A stretch of DNA of 64,000 nucleotides from sequence record PV730300.1; one strand, given 5' to 3'. Position numbers and translations under genes: made by a program. This DNA comes from a phage. Shown here piece by piece: positions 4,875 to 11,220 of this stretch. Position 1 is the first letter of the stretch; the number at the start of each line of letters is the position of its first letter. The notes under the pieces were generated by a model, which had not been told where the DNA came from, did no database searches, and saw only the letters and a list, made by a program, of their open reading frames with translations.

Positions 4875-6248
4875 ATGGCAACTTTTCGTGAAAAGGTAGC
4901 AACCGTAACTTTACTGTATGGTGCTACATCAATTCGTGAAACCCAGTTCGATATTCCCCTGATCCTTACAGGTCAGAACGTAACTGGCGAAGCGATTCAA
5001 TATTACTCTTCTTCCGATGCACTTTTGGAAGCAGGTTATGGATTAAATGATCCAGCGTATATTATGGCAGTCAAACTGTTTAACGGTTTGTTCCCACCAG
5101 ATCAAGTCATGGTTGGTAAGCGTGAAGTTACAAACTTTACTCTAACTCCAATCGTAGAAGATAGTGCAACTTACACAATTACCATCAAAAATGGTACCAA
5201 GAAAAAAGAATTTAAATTCATTGCTGATGACACTGCAACTGCACAAGAGATTGTAGTTGGTCTGACTGAAATGATCAATGCAGATCTTGTTTATGGCCCA
5301 CTGTTTACAGTAGCTAACAACGGCGCTGCAATGACTTTCACTCCAGTAGAAGGTAAGTTTGGTTCTATTGACAGCACAGGTTTCACTCAAGAAACTGTCT
5401 ATGCTAATGCTATTACGGAAGATATCGCTGCTCTGCATGATATTGATAGTAGCTGGTTCTGGACCCTTTCAGATTCCCATGAAACAGAAGATGTTCTAGC
5501 TTTGGCTGCATGGGTAGAAGAGAATGATAAAGTTTACTTCTTCTCTAGCTCTGAACCTGGAATTAAAACGAAAGCAGAAGATAACGTTCTGGAACGACTG
5601 AATGACCTCGGTTATAATAACACTTGCTTTGCTTTGTGGATGACCGATGCAGATTCTGTATTCCCAGAAGCGGCAGTTGTTGGTGCAATCTGTTCTCGTC
5701 AACCTGGTTTAACTACTCTTCACGGTAAAACACTGGTAGGTGTAGAGATCGAGAAACTGGATCAGACTTCGGAAAACAATATTGTTCAACAGAACGGTAA
5801 CATCTATCGTAAAGAGCATGGAACTCTGTTCTATCGTGATGGATTGATGGTTAGCGGTTTCTTTGTTGACTATGTTGTTCATGCTTTGTGGTTTAAAGCT
5901 CGCACAGAAGAATCACTGTTTACACTGTTTAAACAACAGTCTATGCTGGGTGGTGGTGTTCGTGCTACTTCAAACGGTCTGGCTTTGATTCGACAAGCTG
6001 TTCTGGCTAACCCGATCCAAGTAGGTATCCTCAACGGTTCCATCGCTAATGAAGTTGTTACTTCTGAAGAGACTGGTTTGCGTGTCGATCTGAAACCTAT
6101 TGTTTATATTCCTTCTCGTGCCGATATGACTGATGCGCAAATCAATGCTCGTCTGGTCGATGGGATGAAGATTGAATATGTTTACGCTGGCTTCTTCCAT
6201 TACGTTAAAGTTCAGGTCAACGTCCTGACTAACCGTACTGCAAACTAA
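4875..6248 (+). CDS. Contractile tail sheath protein
   Basis: 457 aa ORF immediately upstream of a small tube-size ORF, the chaperone frameshift pair and the tape measure gene: canonical myovirus order; identity is by position and size, not by a motif. Confidence 0.6.
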   Translation: MATFREKVATVTLLYGATSIRETQFDIPLILTGQNVTGEAIQYYSSSDALLEAGYGLNDPAYIMAVKLFNGLFPPDQVMVGKREVTNFTLTPIVEDSATYTITIKNGTKKKEFKFIADDTATAQEIVVGLTEMINADLVYGPLFTVANNGAAMTFTPVEGKFGSIDSTGFTQETVYANAITEDIAALHDIDSSWFWTLSDSHETEDVLALAAWVEENDKVYFFSSSEPGIKTKAEDNVLERLNDLGYNNTCFALWMTDADSVFPEAAVVGAICSRQPGLTTLHGKTLVGVEIEKLDQTSENNIVQQNGNIYRKEHGTLFYRDGLMVSGFFVDYVVHALWFKARTEESLFTLFKQQSMLGGGVRATSNGLALIRQAVLANPIQVGILNGSIANEVVTSEETGLRVDLKPIVYIPSRADMTDAQINARLVDGMKIEYVYAGFFHYVKVQVNVLTNRTAN

Positions 6249-6294: not shown

Positions 6295-6774
6295 ATGGAT
6301 AAAATGCTTACTGGCGTAATGGCCTACGACCCATCTCAAGTTATCCTTTCATTAGGTGGTTGGGAACCGTGGGGTTTTGCGGCTGATACTAAAATCGTTA
6401 TTGCTAAATCTAACGATATTATCAACCCTTATGCAGGGACTGATGGCGACGTTTCACTAGCTTTGAGTCGTAACCGTTTGGGAACACTCACAATGTCTTT
6501 GCAACGCACATCTCCAGCTAACGAAGTACTTGCAACATATGCACAAACAATGTATTCTACTCGTCAAGTAGCATTCAGCGTTTACTTGGAAGACCCACGT
6601 GGCTATTACATTAGCACGATTGGATGGATTCAAAGTCAGCCTGAAGATACTATTGGCGAAATGATTACAGAGAACCAATGGGTTATTGGTCTTAAAGATG
6701 CAAGCCTTCTGCGTAATGAAGTTGGTGTAGGTTTGAGCACCCTTAACTCAATCTCTGCTCTGACAATTCAATAA
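6295..6774 (+). CDS. Tail tube protein
   Basis: 159 aa ORF directly after the sheath gene and before the chaperone; size and position typical. Confidence 0.55.
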   Translation: MDKMLTGVMAYDPSQVILSLGGWEPWGFAADTKIVIAKSNDIINPYAGTDGDVSLALSRNRLGTLTMSLQRTSPANEVLATYAQTMYSTRQVAFSVYLEDPRGYYISTIGWIQSQPEDTIGEMITENQWVIGLKDASLLRNEVGVGLSTLNSISALTIQ

Positions 6775-6781
6775 TAAATAA

Positions 6782-6803
6782 AGGGCAGAAATGCCCTTTT
6801 TAT
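6782..6803 (+). terminator. Rho-independent terminator after tail tube gene
   Basis: agggca-gaaa-tgccct hairpin (GNRA loop) followed by ttttt. Confidence 0.7.
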
Positions 6804-6819: not shown

Positions 6820-7302
6820 ATGTCACAAGAACAAGATAACACAATTCAAAAATATGCTCGACCAGAAGAAGTAGTTGAGATTCCGTTAGATGGAAACAGA
6901 TCTGTTACTTTCCGTATTATGAAGTGGAGTCCATCTAAAGTGTTTGACAGGATTCCAGAATTGGGTAGTGTTCTGGTTGTTCCTATGACTATGTATAGCA
7001 CAGCAACAATGTCCGCAGACGAAGACCTTGAGTCACGTATTGCTATGGCACTGATCCAACTTTTTGCGGGTTTGGAAGAAAAGAATTTAACTGTCTTTTT
7101 GCGTAAAATTTTAGATGAGGTTTATACTCAAGACGGTTATAACGTTGCAGAAAATTTTGATGAATTATTTATGGCTCACCCAGAACTAGTGTTAGATCTT
7201 ACTGCTAAAGTTCTGGAGGTAAACTACGGCCCTTTTTTCAAACGAGGTTTCGGAAAACTGTTCACACAGCTTCAGGCGATGACGAGTTTAGCAGCAAATT
7301 AA
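6820..7302 (+). CDS. Tail assembly chaperone (gpG-like)
   Basis: 160 aa acidic ORF upstream of the tape measure region; contains slippery heptamer near its 3' end with an open -1 frame continuing to 7568. Confidence 0.55.
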   Translation: MSQEQDNTIQKYARPEEVVEIPLDGNRSVTFRIMKWSPSKVFDRIPELGSVLVVPMTMYSTATMSADEDLESRIAMALIQLFAGLEEKNLTVFLRKILDEVYTQDGYNVAENFDELFMAHPELVLDLTAKVLEVNYGPFFKRGFGKLFTQLQAMTSLAAN

Positions 7303-7568
7303 CACCTGCGATTGAACATGCTATCGACACAGCAACGAAAACCCTTACTTTGAAGTGGTATGAGGTTATTCTTTGCAAAGTCGTTAAAGATACCTCGGAA
7401 ACACTGAAAACATTGGATAACTACGGTGTAGATTATCTTTTAAAACTATATGAGTATTTAACATACGAAGAGTATGTTGAAGCCATGTATGTTAAAGACA
7501 CTTCAATAAAGAGAAAACATCAAAACCAAACAAATAAAATGTCAGATTTGTTTAAGAAACTTGTTTGA
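6820..7568 (+). CDS. Tail assembly chaperone G-T fusion product via -1 frameshift at 7233-7239
   Basis: Predicted fusion of about 250 aa (G frame to 7239, then -1 frame to 7568); conserved position immediately upstream of tape measure gene. Confidence 0.45.
7233..7239 (+). other. Programmed -1 ribosomal frameshift slippery site (T TTT TTC)
   Basis: Zero-frame codons CCT TTT TTC (7231-7239) give heptamer U UUU UUC; the -1 frame is open from 7209 to a stop at 7566-7568. Confidence 0.5.
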
Positions 7569-7593
7569 CTTTAAAACGTCACGGTGGTATACT
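7565..7593 (+). promoter_or_regulatory. Sigma70-like promoter candidate (TTGACT-N17-TATACT) upstream of endonuclease-like ORF
   Basis: -35 TTGACT 7565-7570, 17-nt spacer, -10 TATACT 7588-7593; followed by GGAGG SD (7610-7614) and ATG 7621. Confidence 0.45.
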
Positions 7594-7620
7594 TCTTTTA
7601 TTGAATAGAGGAGGAACATC

Positions 7621-8937
7621 ATGCGTGGCGTTTTAAATATTATAGGTCAAGACCCAAACAATCCAGACAAAATTCTGGTTACATGCTCTATCTGTTCAGA
7701 AGATAAAGAACTTTATCCTCAACCTTTCAGCATGTTCAAAAGTAACTTTGGTAGGCAAACACCTTGTGGTTGCTCAAAATGTCCAAAACTAAGTGAAGAT
7801 CAAGCCTACATTGTAGCAAAGAGAGCTACAGAAGCTTTAGGATACACTTTTTTAGGTTGGAGTAAAGAATACACAGGCTCAAGTTCTACAAAAATCCGTT
7901 GTGTTTGTCCTGAACATGGGGAATGGAACACTGGTATAATTTCAACGATTCGGAAGGGTGTGGGTTGTCCAAAGTGTGTAGATCCTAGGAAAAGAAAAGA
8001 TTTAGTAAAAGCTGAAGATTTCTTGGCAACAGGCTTCTTTGAAGATGGGACTACTTTTACCAAATCTGAAAGAAAAGATAAAAATGGTTGGAGTCCTTAT
8101 TGGTTTGTTACCTGCCCTACATGTTCAAATGATAAGTTTGTAAAAGCTGGACTTTGCTCTGGTATCTTTGAAGGCATGAAGTCTAATCTTTTGAAGGGTG
8201 CTAAACCTTGTCGTTGTTCTTCAAGGTATGTATACACTGAAGAGCAATATATTTTACGAATTAACACTGAAACACCTTATAGCTTTATTCGTTGGATTGG
8301 GAAGTTTAAAGGTAATCGCTCAAAAGTTGTAGTTTTTTGCGAAGAACATGGCGGTGAGATAGAGATGACTGTTTTTGGTTTGTTATCGGGAAACCGTTGT
8401 ATTACTTGTCACGGACACAAACCGAAACCAGAGACTGACATGAAAGAACAATTGAAAAAGGTTTGTGAGGAACGTGGATACACTTTTGTAAAGCTTATTG
8501 ATTACAAATCAAATAAGAGTTCTTTTCAATACTCTTGCAAAACCCACGGCATCCAACAAATATCAATCACAAACTTTATACACGGTGAACAAGGTTGTCC
8601 AGAATGTAGAGGTAAAAATCAGACCTATGCTTATATTCACCTGGTGGAAGATGAGGGTCTTGGTATTATTGGTCTTAAATTTGGAATAACAAAAAATCCA
8701 AGAATAAGAATAAGGCAACAGAATCGACTTGCTAAATATAAACTACGCAAGTTTAAGTTATATAGATTTGAAACTGTGGCAGCTTGTCGCACCGCAGAGA
8801 AAGAAGTGAAAGACGTTTTACCTTGCGGAGTTTTCTCCCAACAAGACATTCCAGACGGGTGGACAGAGACAACTTATATCTACAACCTGGAAAACATTAT
8901 GAAAATCTTTGAAGATAATGGAGGAATACTTTGTTAG
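7621..8937 (+). CDS. Homing-endonuclease-like protein: five tandem zinc-ribbon modules plus C-terminal T5orf172 (GIY-YIG-like) domain
   Basis: Repeated Cys-pair modules (TCSICS...TPCGCSKCPK; IRCVCPEHG...GVGCPKCV; FVTCPTCS...PCRCS; VVFCEEHG...RCITCHG; YSCKTHG...GCPECRG); C-terminal YAYIHLVEDEGLGIIGLKFGITKNPRIRIRQQN matches the T5orf172 pattern as I recall it; strong SD; lies just upstream of a group I intron core. Confidence 0.6.
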   Translation: MRGVLNIIGQDPNNPDKILVTCSICSEDKELYPQPFSMFKSNFGRQTPCGCSKCPKLSEDQAYIVAKRATEALGYTFLGWSKEYTGSSSTKIRCVCPEHGEWNTGIISTIRKGVGCPKCVDPRKRKDLVKAEDFLATGFFEDGTTFTKSERKDKNGWSPYWFVTCPTCSNDKFVKAGLCSGIFEGMKSNLLKGAKPCRCSSRYVYTEEQYILRINTETPYSFIRWIGKFKGNRSKVVVFCEEHGGEIEMTVFGLLSGNRCITCHGHKPKPETDMKEQLKKVCEERGYTFVKLIDYKSNKSSFQYSCKTHGIQQISITNFIHGEQGCPECRGKNQTYAYIHLVEDEGLGIIGLKFGITKNPRIRIRQQNRLAKYKLRKFKLYRFETVAACRTAEKEVKDVLPCGVFSQQDIPDGWTETTYIYNLENIMKIFEDNGGILC

Positions 8938-8989
8938 AAATTAACGCCTTAACTTAGGGGCTAATGTGTAGTGATACACATTATCAACT

Positions 8990-9250
8990 TTGTGAATTGC
9001 TGGGACACCCTTAGAGCCACACTACCACTGCGAATCGAAAGATGAAGCCACGGTTTGAAAAGTGTGTGGATTGGGTAATCAGCAGCCAAGCTCCGTTTAG
9101 GAGAAGGTTCAACGACTATCCCGTAAGGGAGTAGGATCAAGTGGTCCGAAGCGCAAAGCGTCTCATGTAGATGAAGATATAGTCTAATCTGTAGGGAAAC
9201 TTACAGCAGCGAAAGCGGGGAAGAATTAACGAATCTTCCCGAATACAATG
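8990..9250 (+). ncRNA. Group I intron catalytic core (P3-P9)
   Basis: Recognisable conserved elements: P-like aattgctgggaca (8996-9008), Q-like aatcagcagcc (9077-9087), R-like gttcaacgactatc (9107-9120), S-like aagatatagtct (9174-9185); gactat/atagtc give 6-bp P7; GNRA-loop hairpins at 8964-8981 (GTGA) and 9189-9206 (GAAA); no long ORF. Confidence 0.7.
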
Positions 9251-9264
9251 CAAAAATTAGTAAC

Positions 9265-11220
9265 GTGGTTACGTTTAAGGTGGACAAGAACAGTCTCAAG
9301 GAAGCAAAAGATGCCGTGTTGAGTGTTCAGAAGTTTGCAAATAAAATGCAACCCACTATGAACATGACCAAGTTTAGACAACAAATGAAAGAGATTGAGC
9401 GTGAACTTAAGAAAGCTCAAACTCAAAGTCAAAAACCTATGCGAGCACCTACTCCCGCTGGAGCGGGTGCTCCTGTAGGTGGATCTGGCAGACCTAGAAC
9501 TCCTAAAACCCCGCAAGGAAGAGAAGAAGAAAAAGCTCGTAAAGCGGCTGAACGCGAAGCTAAAGCAGCAGCACGTAGGGAAGATTTAGGTAATCTTCGT
9601 TTGCAGAACTTTAACTACCGAGCAAAAGCATTTAGTAAAGCCAGTCCTGGCGCTATGCAAGAAGCTAGAGACGTTATGGGTAAAGCTGTAGAGCAATATA
9701 AGAAGGGTGAAATAACTCTTCAACGTATGAACCAAGCTCTTGCTCACCAGTTAGATGCTTTACGCAGATCTCATCGTGAAAAGAATGCTGAAATAGAAGA
9801 CGAGGTTCGCGGTCGTCGCCGTATTCGTAGAGAGCTAGAAGCAGAAGCTAAAATGCGTATACGTATGCGAAACCGTGAACTTAGAGATATAGAACGCAAC
9901 CGTAAGCGTGAATTAGCTCAGCAAAAACGTGATCGTGATCGTCGATATGGACAATTAAAAGAAGGTGCAGCAGGTCTTAATCCACGCATGATTGCATCCT
10001 CTTTGATAGGTGCTGGACTGTTTGCAGGTGGTTCTGTAGTTGGTAACACTTTGATGAATACTAACGAAAGAATTAAAATGGTTAGTCGCGGTGCTGAAAA
10101 CGTCCAAACGAATGCTAACTCTATTTTAACAATGACCGCATGGGGTGAACAAAACGGTGTAGACTCGGCAAATATCATTAAAGCAATAGATAACATTAAA
10201 GACGTTCGTGAACGTCTAGGTAATACCATGATGAACACCAAATGGAACGCAAAAGAAGGGAAATGGAAAGGTGGTGATAACGGTATTACTGATATTATGA
10301 ATGCTTTTGGTTGGAACCCCGATCAAATAAAACATTTGCAAAATGACCCGTTAGCTTTTATCCAAGCCACTGTTAATGAAGGCGAACGTCGAGGCATGAA
10401 CTCTGCTCAAATCGGGCGACTTCTTGAAAACCTTGGTGATGACCTTATGCACTACCAACGTATGTTTAGTAAAAACGGCGAAGGGTATAACGAAGTATTG
10501 AAAATGCTTCAAAGAACAGGTGCAACATTAACTCAAGAACAAATAGATGCTTCTAAAGAGTTTACTCGTTTTGCTGCAACAGTTCAGCTTGTAGGTCAAG
10601 GTATGCAGAACCATTTCCTGGAAGGTTTTGTAAAAGCTTTACCTAAAGATGATTCTTGGTTGGATAATGTTAAAGTGCTAGATCAGTTCGCCAAAGATTT
10701 AGGTGAAGAACTTGGTAAAACAACAGTTCAACTTGGTGGTTTTGCTAAAGAATTGGGAGATGGTTTCGGATCTTTTACCAATTGGCTTAAAGAAACATTC
10801 CCCGATACCTTCGGAGACAACACAGATCCTAATAAATCTATGGCACAAAAAGCATATGAGGCAACGCAAAGTGGAGACAGTAACCCTGTAGCAGATTGGT
10901 TGTACAATTTAACAGGTATTGATACACAAGATATTGGTCGTATGTGGAGAGGAGAGCAAACAAGGACACGTGCTTTTGGATTTGGTAATCCTCTTGAGGA
11001 TTTACGTGAATCAGCCTATACACCTAACGTAAGTTTGGCTCGTAATCAACCTGTTGTTGAGAATACGGTAGCAATACCAAGTGATCTTATCAAAGTTACG
11101 ATCAGCCCTTCTTCCGAGTTTGGAAATATTCTTGATGCAAGAATTCAAAACAGCGGAAATAGCATTTTCCAACGTTTGTCTCTTTCAACTCTAAGTGGAC
11201 AATCTAACACTGGTGGTTAA
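9265..11220 (+). CDS. Tail tape measure protein (probable 3' exon; true 5' end unresolved)
   Basis: 651 aa, charged helical N-terminal region, follows the chaperone frameshift pair; listed GTG start has no SD and the frame opens only at 9175 inside the intron core. Confidence 0.6.
   Translation: MVTFKVDKNSLKEAKDAVLSVQKFANKMQPTMNMTKFRQQMKEIERELKKAQTQSQKPMRAPTPAGAGAPVGGSGRPRTPKTPQGREEEKARKAAEREAKAAARREDLGNLRLQNFNYRAKAFSKASPGAMQEARDVMGKAVEQYKKGEITLQRMNQALAHQLDALRRSHREKNAEIEDEVRGRRRIRRELEAEAKMRIRMRNRELRDIERNRKRELAQQKRDRDRRYGQLKEGAAGLNPRMIASSLIGAGLFAGGSVVGNTLMNTNERIKMVSRGAENVQTNANSILTMTAWGEQNGVDSANIIKAIDNIKDVRERLGNTMMNTKWNAKEGKWKGGDNGITDIMNAFGWNPDQIKHLQNDPLAFIQATVNEGERRGMNSAQIGRLLENLGDDLMHYQRMFSKNGEGYNEVLKMLQRTGATLTQEQIDASKEFTRFAATVQLVGQGMQNHFLEGFVKALPKDDSWLDNVKVLDQFAKDLGEELGKTTVQLGGFAKELGDGFGSFTNWLKETFPDTFGDNTDPNKSMAQKAYEATQSGDSNPVADWLYNLTGIDTQDIGRMWRGEQTRTRAFGFGNPLEDLRESAYTPNVSLARNQPVVENTVAIPSDLIKVTISPSSEFGNILDARIQNSGNSIFQRLSLSTLSGQSNTGG

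Follow-up and report, generated by a model that had tools for sequence, protein, structure and literature searches.

Comparative evidence for a programmed −1 ribosomal frameshift in the tail assembly chaperone gene of a nepoznato-like Phapecoctavirus and its relatives

The tail assembly chaperone gene of the phage studied here very probably carries a programmed −1 ribosomal frameshift site, from which a short and a long tail assembly chaperone would be produced, a reading to which we assign a probability of about 90% on the strength of sequence comparison. The initial annotation of this DNA had recognised at this place the conserved chaperone frameshift of tailed phages, and this claim is supported by the gene order, by membership of the chaperone in the Phage_TAC_15 family, by the presence of the same slippery heptamer in 47 of 47 distinct loci, by selection acting on the −1 frame, and by the lack of a credible start codon in that frame. 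The mechanism itself is textbook knowledge, and it is missed by the current annotations of the group to which the phage belongs.

The chaperone gene and its two reading frames

The window (the whole stretch of DNA that was analysed, 64,000 nucleotides) shares 99.3% identity, between positions 6200 and 9400, with Escherichia phage nepoznato (NC_052658.1), a Phapecoctavirus of the Stephanstirmvirinae with a genome of 151.5 kb, and judged by its sequence it is that of a nepoznato-like Phapecoctavirus. The genes considered below are all on the plus strand, in the order tail sheath (4875-6248; phrog_205, DUF3383), tail tube (6295-6774; phrog_280, 4e-35, and Pfam KPP10_Orf10), chaperone (6820-7302), −1 ORF and tape measure, the second exon of which (9251-11220) matches phrog_16051, 'tail length tape measure protein', with 1204 bits. 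The same order is found in 16 annotated relatives, and CB7_18, the homologue of the tail tube protein of the window, is the tail tube among the virion proteins detected in phage CB7. Two overlapping ORFs are situated between the tube gene (6295-6774) and the tape-measure gene (from 8931), which is the arrangement that characterises G/GT-type chaperone genes.

The first of these ORFs, the zero-frame, G-like partner (TAC-N), starts with an ATG with the sequence GAGAGGA just 5' of it, and codes for a protein of 160 aa and 18.2 kDa. This protein matches Pfam PF21822 (Phage_TAC_15) with 84.3 bits (1.3e-23; cut-off 22 bits) and phrog_3840, 'tail assembly chaperone', with an E-value of 2.8e-55, with further matches of the same name to phrog_1613, phrog_1688 and phrog_11820, and 'tail assembly chaperone' is also the name given to the gene product in RefSeq.

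Close to the 3' end of this ORF, the zero-frame codons CCT TTT TTC occupy positions 7231-7239, with 7231 as the start of a codon, and the initial annotation had described them as an X XXY YYZ heptamer, every coordinate of which proved correct. The slippery sequence, C CCU UUU UUC (7230-7239), can be read directly from the DNA and contains two overlapping canonical heptamers that are both in phase, C CCU UUU (7230-7236) and the conserved core U UUU UUC (7233-7239), the latter with UUU in the P site and UUC in the A site, both read by tRNA-Phe; a slip on either of the two would give an identical protein. The −1 frame is closed by a TAA at 7206-7208 and, as had been described, is open from 7209 to a TGA at 7566-7568, overlapping the chaperone ORF by 94 nt. 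Its part downstream of the slip, the T-like extension that would form the C-terminal part of TAC-NC, spans 7239-7568 (109 codons and the TGA). Between 7239 and 7302 the DNA is dual-coding, with the chaperone C-terminus KRGFGKLFTQLQAMTSLAAN in the zero frame and QTRFRKTV... in the −1 frame, and both frames are conserved there.

The predicted fusion, join(6820..7239, 7239..7568), has a computed length of 249 aa and a mass of 28.8 kDa, in agreement with the product of about 250 aa and about 28 kDa first proposed, and reads ...VLEVNYGPFF-QTRFRKTV...KKLV across the junction. Its tryptic junction peptide would be VLEVNYGPFFQTR, the zero-frame counterpart being VLEVNYGPFFK, and the stretch 7303-7349, 5' of all candidate starts in the −1 frame, codes for the peptide LTPAIEHAIDTATK.

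In the mechanism that we propose, most ribosomes would read 6820-7302 and release the 160-aa chaperone, whereas in a minority of them the tRNA-Phe in the P and A sites on UUU UUC (7234-7239) would re-pair with U UUU UU; in the clade of the window, a slip one codon earlier, on C CCU UUU, would be equally possible. The shifted ribosomes would resume at CAA 7239 in the −1 frame and end at the TGA at 7566-7568, giving a long form of 249 aa, the first 140 residues of which would be common to the short form and would be followed by a variable linker and the 109-residue C-terminal domain. We infer that the slip occurs, with an efficiency expected to be a few per cent and within about 1-10%, and that its products have a role in assembly. 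By analogy with gpG/gpGT of phage lambda and E/E+E' of P2, the two forms would coat the tape-measure protein, the extension would recruit the tube protein and so let the tail grow to its measured length, and the virion would retain neither form. This role is modelled on lambda, in which the short and long forms bind the tape measure, the tube subunit is brought in by the extension and both forms have departed once the tail is complete (PMC5009743), and it is assigned here because of homology of position and of family. The virion proteome of CB7 is consistent with it, since the sheath, tube and tape-measure proteins were detected there while CB7_19 and CB7_20, the homologues of the chaperone ORFs, are unlisted, as expected for chaperones.

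Conservation of the slip site and coding signature of the −1 frame

Taken from one genome alone, the heptamer is weak evidence and only suggestive, because the chance of finding any canonical heptamer in the 94-nt overlap is roughly 10% by a rough estimate. TTTTTTC itself is depleted in the 64 kb of the window (19 copies on both strands versus 31.7 expected from shuffles), so that an in-phase copy within the 94-nt overlap is unlikely by chance, at about 0.5% (about 11 plus-strand copies per 64 kb and 31 in-phase positions in 94 nt). Two further in-phase heptamers in the gene, G GGT TTG and A AAT TTT, were rejected as candidates, being unconserved and located upstream, 5' of the point at which the −1 frame opens. 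As a background statistic we also measured, in every ORF of 100 aa or more, the length over which the −1 frame stays open past the stop, which was uninformative because long −1 extensions usually are the next overlapping gene with its own start.

The comparative evidence, in contrast, we regard as decisive for a frameshift site as far as sequences can show one. A tblastn search with the conceptual fusion gave matches in two pieces and two frames in phage records, with identities of 98% in Phapecoctavirus, 67% in the phi92-like Justusliebigvirus, 51% in Klebsiella phage 05F01 and about 31% in the rV5-like Vequintavirinae. The loci compared (13 annotated and 43 from IMG/VR) amount to 47 distinct ones, drawn from the Stephanstirmvirinae, the Vequintavirinae and IMG/VR contigs, and the identity of their chaperones to that of the window goes from 100% down to 26%. 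T TTT TTC is present in zero-frame phase within the overlap in 47/47 distinct loci, a count with a mild ascertainment bias since one of the IMG/VR retrieval patterns was the adjacent motif (K/E)V(L/V)(E/K)(V/I)NY(G/A), the heptamer itself being unused. A −1 ORF of 108-149 codons, ending just 5' of the tape-measure gene, is likewise found in all of them, and the same site is present in Aeromonas phage 4L372XY (Plateaulakevirus). The run of six U followed by C does not vary among four or more phage lineages, between which chaperone identity is below 30%.

The pattern of variation around the site is also informative. The T-run has exactly six bases in all 47 loci, never more, and in all 36-nt contexts, 28 of them distinct, the Phe pair is written TTT TTC, while the codon 5' of the run may be Pro (12), Cys (13) or Ser (3) and has T as its third base in every case; neighbouring synonymous third positions vary freely in the same contexts. 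Part of the conservation of the T-run could be due to protein constraint, because Phe-Phe is conserved in the zero frame, but such a constraint would leave the invariant third bases unexplained. By these comparisons, the constraint at the slip site acts on nucleotides, beyond amino acids. In Rheinheimera phage Barba21A the T-run has been lost (the zero frame reads ...HYGCLTSGK...), and an in-phase, lambda-type G GGA AAG is found a few codons downstream, followed by a homologous −1 ORF of 126 codons. This replacement of the heptamer, with the architecture kept, is in our view the strongest single argument for ribosomal −1 frameshifting.

The −1 frame also behaves as coding sequence. The conceptual fusions of 14 loci can be aligned as proteins over their full length, from the first codon after the slip, and the extension has a recurrent layout, in which RFR(K/R) (RFRK in the window) follows right after the slip, then a variable linker rich in Gly, Ser and Asp, and then a conserved domain with the motifs SLxW(Y/F), (T/K)(S/G)E and EYL. 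Beyond the chaperone stop codon, the differences between the window and its relatives are concentrated at the third positions of the −1-frame codons, the counts at the three codon positions being 21/8/41 for phiWec188 (L003), 27/16/51 for PD06 (L004) and 22/8/44 for a third locus (L016). On this evidence, purifying selection acts on the −1 frame, beginning at the slip site. In the +1 frame a stop codon is reached within 6-54 codons. The extension matches phrog_16039, phrog_10409 and phrog_8811, each of unknown function, and it has no detectable similarity to a named family in Pfam, PHROG or NCBIfam, a weak Dodecin match (E 0.05) having been dismissed as chance. Searches with the fusion gave no match in the PDB at E ≤ 1 and nothing meaningful in NCBIfam, and an AlphaFold2 model of it computed without an alignment had a mean pLDDT of 39.9 and was unusable.

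These data bear on three other explanations. The −1 ORF could be a separate small gene, for instance the 72-aa ORF beginning at TTG 7350, expressed by its own initiation or by termination at the chaperone stop and reinitiation, with an incidental T-run. Many GenBank records do annotate a 'hypothetical protein' of 38-122 aa at this place, the 72-aa type occurring in several genomes and corresponding to phrog_16039, the Murica record includes an annotated ribosome-binding site, and in T4-like phages a mechanism different from frameshifting has been suggested to underlie the chaperone pair (Vladimirov et al. 2022, as cited in PMC12846349). However, the annotated starts are at non-homologous positions and use TTG, CTG or other codons. 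The first start codon that the −1 ORF offers is TTG 7350, 47 codons after the frame opens, and no Shine-Dalgarno sequence was found before it in the window, in contrast to the clear ones of the chaperone, endonuclease and tape-measure genes. Among the relatives, too, neither a start codon nor a ribosome-binding site was found to be conserved for the −1 ORF. Conservation of the −1-frame protein sets in directly behind the heptamer, far 5' of any start, and extends over 7303-7349, a stretch outside all annotations. As a separate gene would also leave both the invariant, phased heptamer and the exchange in Barba21A unexplained, we consider this explanation very improbable.

Transcriptional slippage, in which RNA polymerase would lose one U or gain two at the T6 run in some of the mRNAs, is suggested by the homopolymeric nature of the site, and is used elsewhere to reach alternative frames (PMC5009743). 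The bacterial cases described concern runs of about nine A or T (PMC5009743), whereas here the length is fixed at six; moreover, the X XXY YYZ phase and the C at the seventh base are constant, which a polymerase would not need, and the G GGA AAG of Barba21A does not include a long homopolymer. We judge it highly unlikely, to a similar degree as a separate gene. The least probable explanation is that the open frame and the heptamer both arose by chance and that no long product is made: the estimate of about 10% for some canonical heptamer is in its favour for a single AT-rich genome, but it is at odds with a site kept in 47/47 loci, with a −1 frame that bears a coding signature and with the depletion of TTTTTTC (19 versus 31.7), and the comparative data effectively refute it. 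Programmed ribosomal frameshifting thus is the reading that we retain.

Flanking signals and downstream insertions

The −1 frameshift was expected to be accompanied by a downstream pseudoknot or stem-loop, for which RNA folding had been suggested as a check, and none was found, the sequences of the window and of seven relatives being no more stable than their shuffles. When the 47-101 nt that follow the heptamer were folded as single sequences, the z-scores for these eight sequences were between −0.79 and +1.69, and RNAalifold with 10 Stephanstirmvirinae sequences gave −2.03 kcal/mol, with pairs that involve the U-run itself and have no supporting covariation. There was no match to an Rfam frameshift-element family in 7100-9500 at E ≤ 1, a group I intron (see below) being the one strong hit there. 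Nor was a stable stem-loop or pseudoknot of the kind known from dnaX, IS911/IS3 and coronaviruses found at a spacing of 5-9 nt downstream of the heptamer. Since there is no stable or conserved 3' structure, the efficiency of frameshifting may be low. A near-invariant block, CGnGGTTTCGG, is present just 3' of the heptamer, and its conservation is attributable to dual coding, as it is read as GFG in the chaperone frame and as RFR in the shifted one.

The slip signal appears to be the heptamer alone. After the slip, tRNA-Phe (anticodon GAA) has no pairing advantage in the −1 frame. In measurements made in E. coli, the shift-prone classes include all-pyrimidine heptamers that have an A-site UUY codon (PMC4066793). 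Given the lack of a conserved 3' structure, an upstream GGAGG (7215-7219) may help the slip, and this Shine-Dalgarno-like sequence is a candidate 5' stimulator, at a distance of 13 nt from U UUU UUC and of 10 nt from C CCU UUU. Stimulators of this type have been described in dnaX and in numerous IS elements (PMC5009743). A GGAG/GAGG core is found at −18/−17 in 21 of the 28 contexts and only at −27/−26 in one more, and six Certrevirus-like contexts have none; it overlaps the sequence coding for LEVNYG, and because GGAGG also encodes the LEV of this conserved motif, selection on the RNA and on the protein are inseparable here.

The flanks of the site are unusually conserved, both upstream (GGAGG and the nascent ...LEVNYG(P/C)FF) and downstream (the block CGGUUUCG). 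It is conceivable, if doubtful, that they constitute a structure-independent stimulator that sets the G:GT ratio through rRNA-mRNA pairing or through the nascent peptide, and their conservation is equally explained by dual coding together with protein constraint. Should such a stimulator exist, this family would offer a clean natural model in which to study structure-less −1 frameshifting in E. coli.

Downstream of the −1 ORF, the initial annotation had placed an intron/endonuclease insertion that parts the chaperone from the body of the tape measure. The separation by an insertion is confirmed, but two separate elements are involved, and the intron has no ORF. The first element is a free-standing endonuclease gene (7621-8937; Pfam CapR repeats, 2.6e-46, and phrog_681, 'endonuclease', 1e-89), which lies outside the frameshift device, between the stop codon of the −1 ORF and the start of the tape-measure gene, and is lacking in ESCO5 and some 60 further Phapecoctavirus records. 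In ESCO5 only 20 nt separate that stop codon from the TTG start of the tape-measure gene, whereas in the window there is an insertion of 1.36 kb containing the endonuclease gene, the left boundary of which lies inside the −1 stop codon (GTT TAA becoming GTT TGA), so that the extension is unchanged. The endonuclease gene has a promoter-like site of its own (TTGACT-17-TATACT, 7565-7593) and its own Shine-Dalgarno sequence, and its stop codon (8935-8937) overlaps the restored TTG start of the tape-measure gene at 8931.

The second element is a group I intron of 301 nt (8950-9250; Rfam RF00028, 92.9 bits against a gathering score of 50, E 5e-24), inserted 19 bases into the tape-measure gene, after codon 6. 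The first exon (8931-8949), comprising the TTG start and 6 codons, matches the beginning of the ESCO5 tape-measure gene. The junctions were set by alignment to ESCO5, the last base of the 5' exon being U and that of the intron G, and the computed splice product has 662 aa and is identical to the ESCO5 protein at 644 of 663 aligned positions. The RefSeq tape-measure start, at 9280, consequently loses the N-terminus. That a group I intron interrupts the tape-measure gene, and has a free-standing endonuclease gene beside it, is a side observation.

Relation to known frameshift systems and to current annotations

The closest model for the chaperone pair is gpG/gpGT of phage lambda, described by Levin, Hendrix and Casjens (1993) and Xu, Hendrix and Duda (2004, 2013, 2014), as summarised in PMC5009743, where the 2004 paper is cited for the conservation of the G/GT-type frameshift in tailed phages. 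In both systems overlapping ORFs lie between the major tail or tube gene and the tape-measure gene, the second of them in the −1 frame and startless, and a minor long form shares its N-terminus with a major short form (a prediction in the present case), neither being expected in virions. To our knowledge, no 3' RNA structure is required for lambda gpG/gpGT. The two systems differ in the heptamer (U UUU UUC here, G GGA AAG in lambda), in the chaperone family (PF21822, Phage_TAC_15, here, and the gpG family in lambda), and in the phage itself, which is here a 150-kb, contractile-tailed lytic one.

A similar TAC-N/TAC-NC −1 frameshift has been proposed for the Vandenendeviridae (Pakpunavirus Adele) and the Andersonviridae (Felix O1/Moogle group) (PMC12846349, December 2025; PMC4319497), and in phage Moogle it has been annotated since 2015. 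In PMC12846349 the argument is comparative, the site is described by an invariant GTTTTT motif, and the virion modules of these families are linked to those of the Vequintavirinae, a likeness to which the match of the window tube protein to Pfam KPP10_Orf10 also points. As far as these sources go, the systems have in common a poly-T site at the 3' end of TAC-N, a −1 frame that is uninterrupted across divergent genera, a downstream ORF that is routinely mis-annotated as a hypothetical protein, and a purely comparative argument. Unlike the motif so described, the base before the run in the Stephanstirmvirinae is C (CCCTTTTTTC) and not G, which creates the second, overlapping heptamer and means that 'GTTTTT', in the form stated there, is not universal. 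Relative to what those sources report, the new element is that the frameshift argument is extended to the Stephanstirmvirinae, the Vequintavirinae, Plateaulakevirus and Barbavirus.

Phage P2 can be likened to the window phage by position, having a contractile tail and a chaperone pair between the tube and the tape measure, and is unlike it in being small and temperate and in having the tail genes near the site arranged in another order. The slip site of P2 is T-rich. Its gpE/gpE+E' −1 frameshift (Christie et al. 2002) is given 2-3 times the efficiency of that of lambda in the summary of PMC5009743. The cassettes of dnaX and IS elements share with the present site a canonical heptamer and, possibly, a Shine-Dalgarno-like stimulator about 10-13 nt upstream; they differ in having a strong 3' stem-loop or pseudoknot and efficiencies of up to about 50% (PMC5009743, PMC4066793), whereas no structure was found here and the Shine-Dalgarno-like element is missing from some relatives.

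In our literature searches no report of a frameshift was found for the phAPEC8, phi92 or rV5 clades. None of the 19 annotated records inspected includes a joined CDS, and in a collection of 5.8 billion proteins we found no full-length fusion, only chaperones of 158-175 aa covering at most 64% of the query. Both absences are a consequence of gene calling and not of biology, and annotators have either chosen different, non-homologous starts for the −1 ORF from one genome to another or left the stretch unannotated. The finding is of low surprise, as G/GT-type frameshifts were already known, including the 2025 poly-T proposal for related families in the source cited above.

Together, these loci offer well over 40 independent natural U UUU UUC sites without a 3' structure, and one lineage with G GGA AAG, which could be used as training or benchmark data for frameshift predictors, while leaving the understanding of the mechanism unchanged. 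The main value of the finding lies in a correct annotation of the phAPEC8-, phi92- and rV5-like phages. Many of these serve in phage therapy and biocontrol or have been suggested for such use, and all of their records that were inspected lack the predicted long chaperone, the C-terminal part of which is now 'intergenic' or an arbitrary small hypothetical protein. Joining the two ORFs would give the orphan families phrog_16039, phrog_10409 and phrog_8811 a function, as the C-terminal part of the long tail assembly chaperone.

The slippery sequence in Barba21A and in the window

In the chaperone gene of Rheinheimera phage Barba21A (locus L060), the T-run equivalent to U UUU UUC is replaced by a lambda-type G GGA AAG (L060 1824-1830) a few codons downstream, and the homologous -1 ORF is retained (126 codons). 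Over the 64-kb window, TTTTTTC is rarer than expected: the two strands together contain 19 copies, whereas dinucleotide-preserving shuffles contain 31.7 ± 5.6, and none of the 100 shuffles had fewer than 19. The deficit fits with slippery runs being avoided except at the programmed site.

Between the tube and chaperone genes, a terminator-like hairpin, AAAGGGCAGAAATGCCCTTT, is followed by a T-run (6780-6799), and could render chaperone transcript levels lower than those of the sheath and tube. In all the relatives the tube gene is one ORF of about 474 nt, whereas the record of Raoultella phage Ro1 (locus L008, 635-1107) splits it into two short CDSs, 635-829 and 868-1107, both labelled 'structural protein'; the split points to an error of sequencing or to a broken tube gene in that record.

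An endonuclease gene and a group I intron at the tape-measure gene

The tape-measure gene is broken after codon 6 (8931-9251) by an ORF-less group I intron of 301 nt (8950-9250; Rfam RF00028, 92.9 bits). The spliced gene, join(8931..8949, 9251..11220), encodes a 662-aa product colinear with the tape measure of ESCO5, a related Phapecoctavirus that lacks the endonuclease gene. In the RefSeq record of Escherichia phage nepoznato, NC_052658, the annotated tape-measure start is the equivalent of 9280, and both the intron and the N-terminus are missing from the annotation.

Lying 12 nt upstream of the intron is a free-standing gene for a 438-aa endonuclease, which presents five CapR repeats and weak matches to T5orf172 and DUF723. 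This gene (7621-8937) is preceded by a promoter-like site of its own, TTGACT-17-TATACT at 7565-7593. The insertion point coincides precisely with the chaperone extension's stop codon, and the 3' end of the gene overlaps the tape-measure start codon. Such an arrangement, of a free-standing endonuclease with a nearby ORF-less intron, is reminiscent of 'collaborative homing'. Nepoznato is the only phage record carrying the endonuclease gene, and both gene and intron are absent from about 60 other Phapecoctavirus records.

Related introns and nuclease genes in other phages

With the intron as query, blastn retrieved two matching places in NC_052658.1, whereas Rfam identified a single group I intron across the window's 64 kb; thus, the nepoznato genome probably carries a second related intron elsewhere, outside the window. 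Phages of Pseudomonas, Serratia and Pectobacterium carry related intron cores as well, with 71-78% identity.

The short spacer that separates the chaperone extension from the tape-measure gene recurs as an insertion site for nuclease genes. In the Certrevirus phages DU_PP_IV (L014 2199-3077) and CB7 (L011 2200-3181) it holds a CapR-domain ORF and a 38-aa ORF, with the tape measure downstream intact; in Barba21A (L060 2126-2764) it holds an HNH endonuclease encoded on the other strand.
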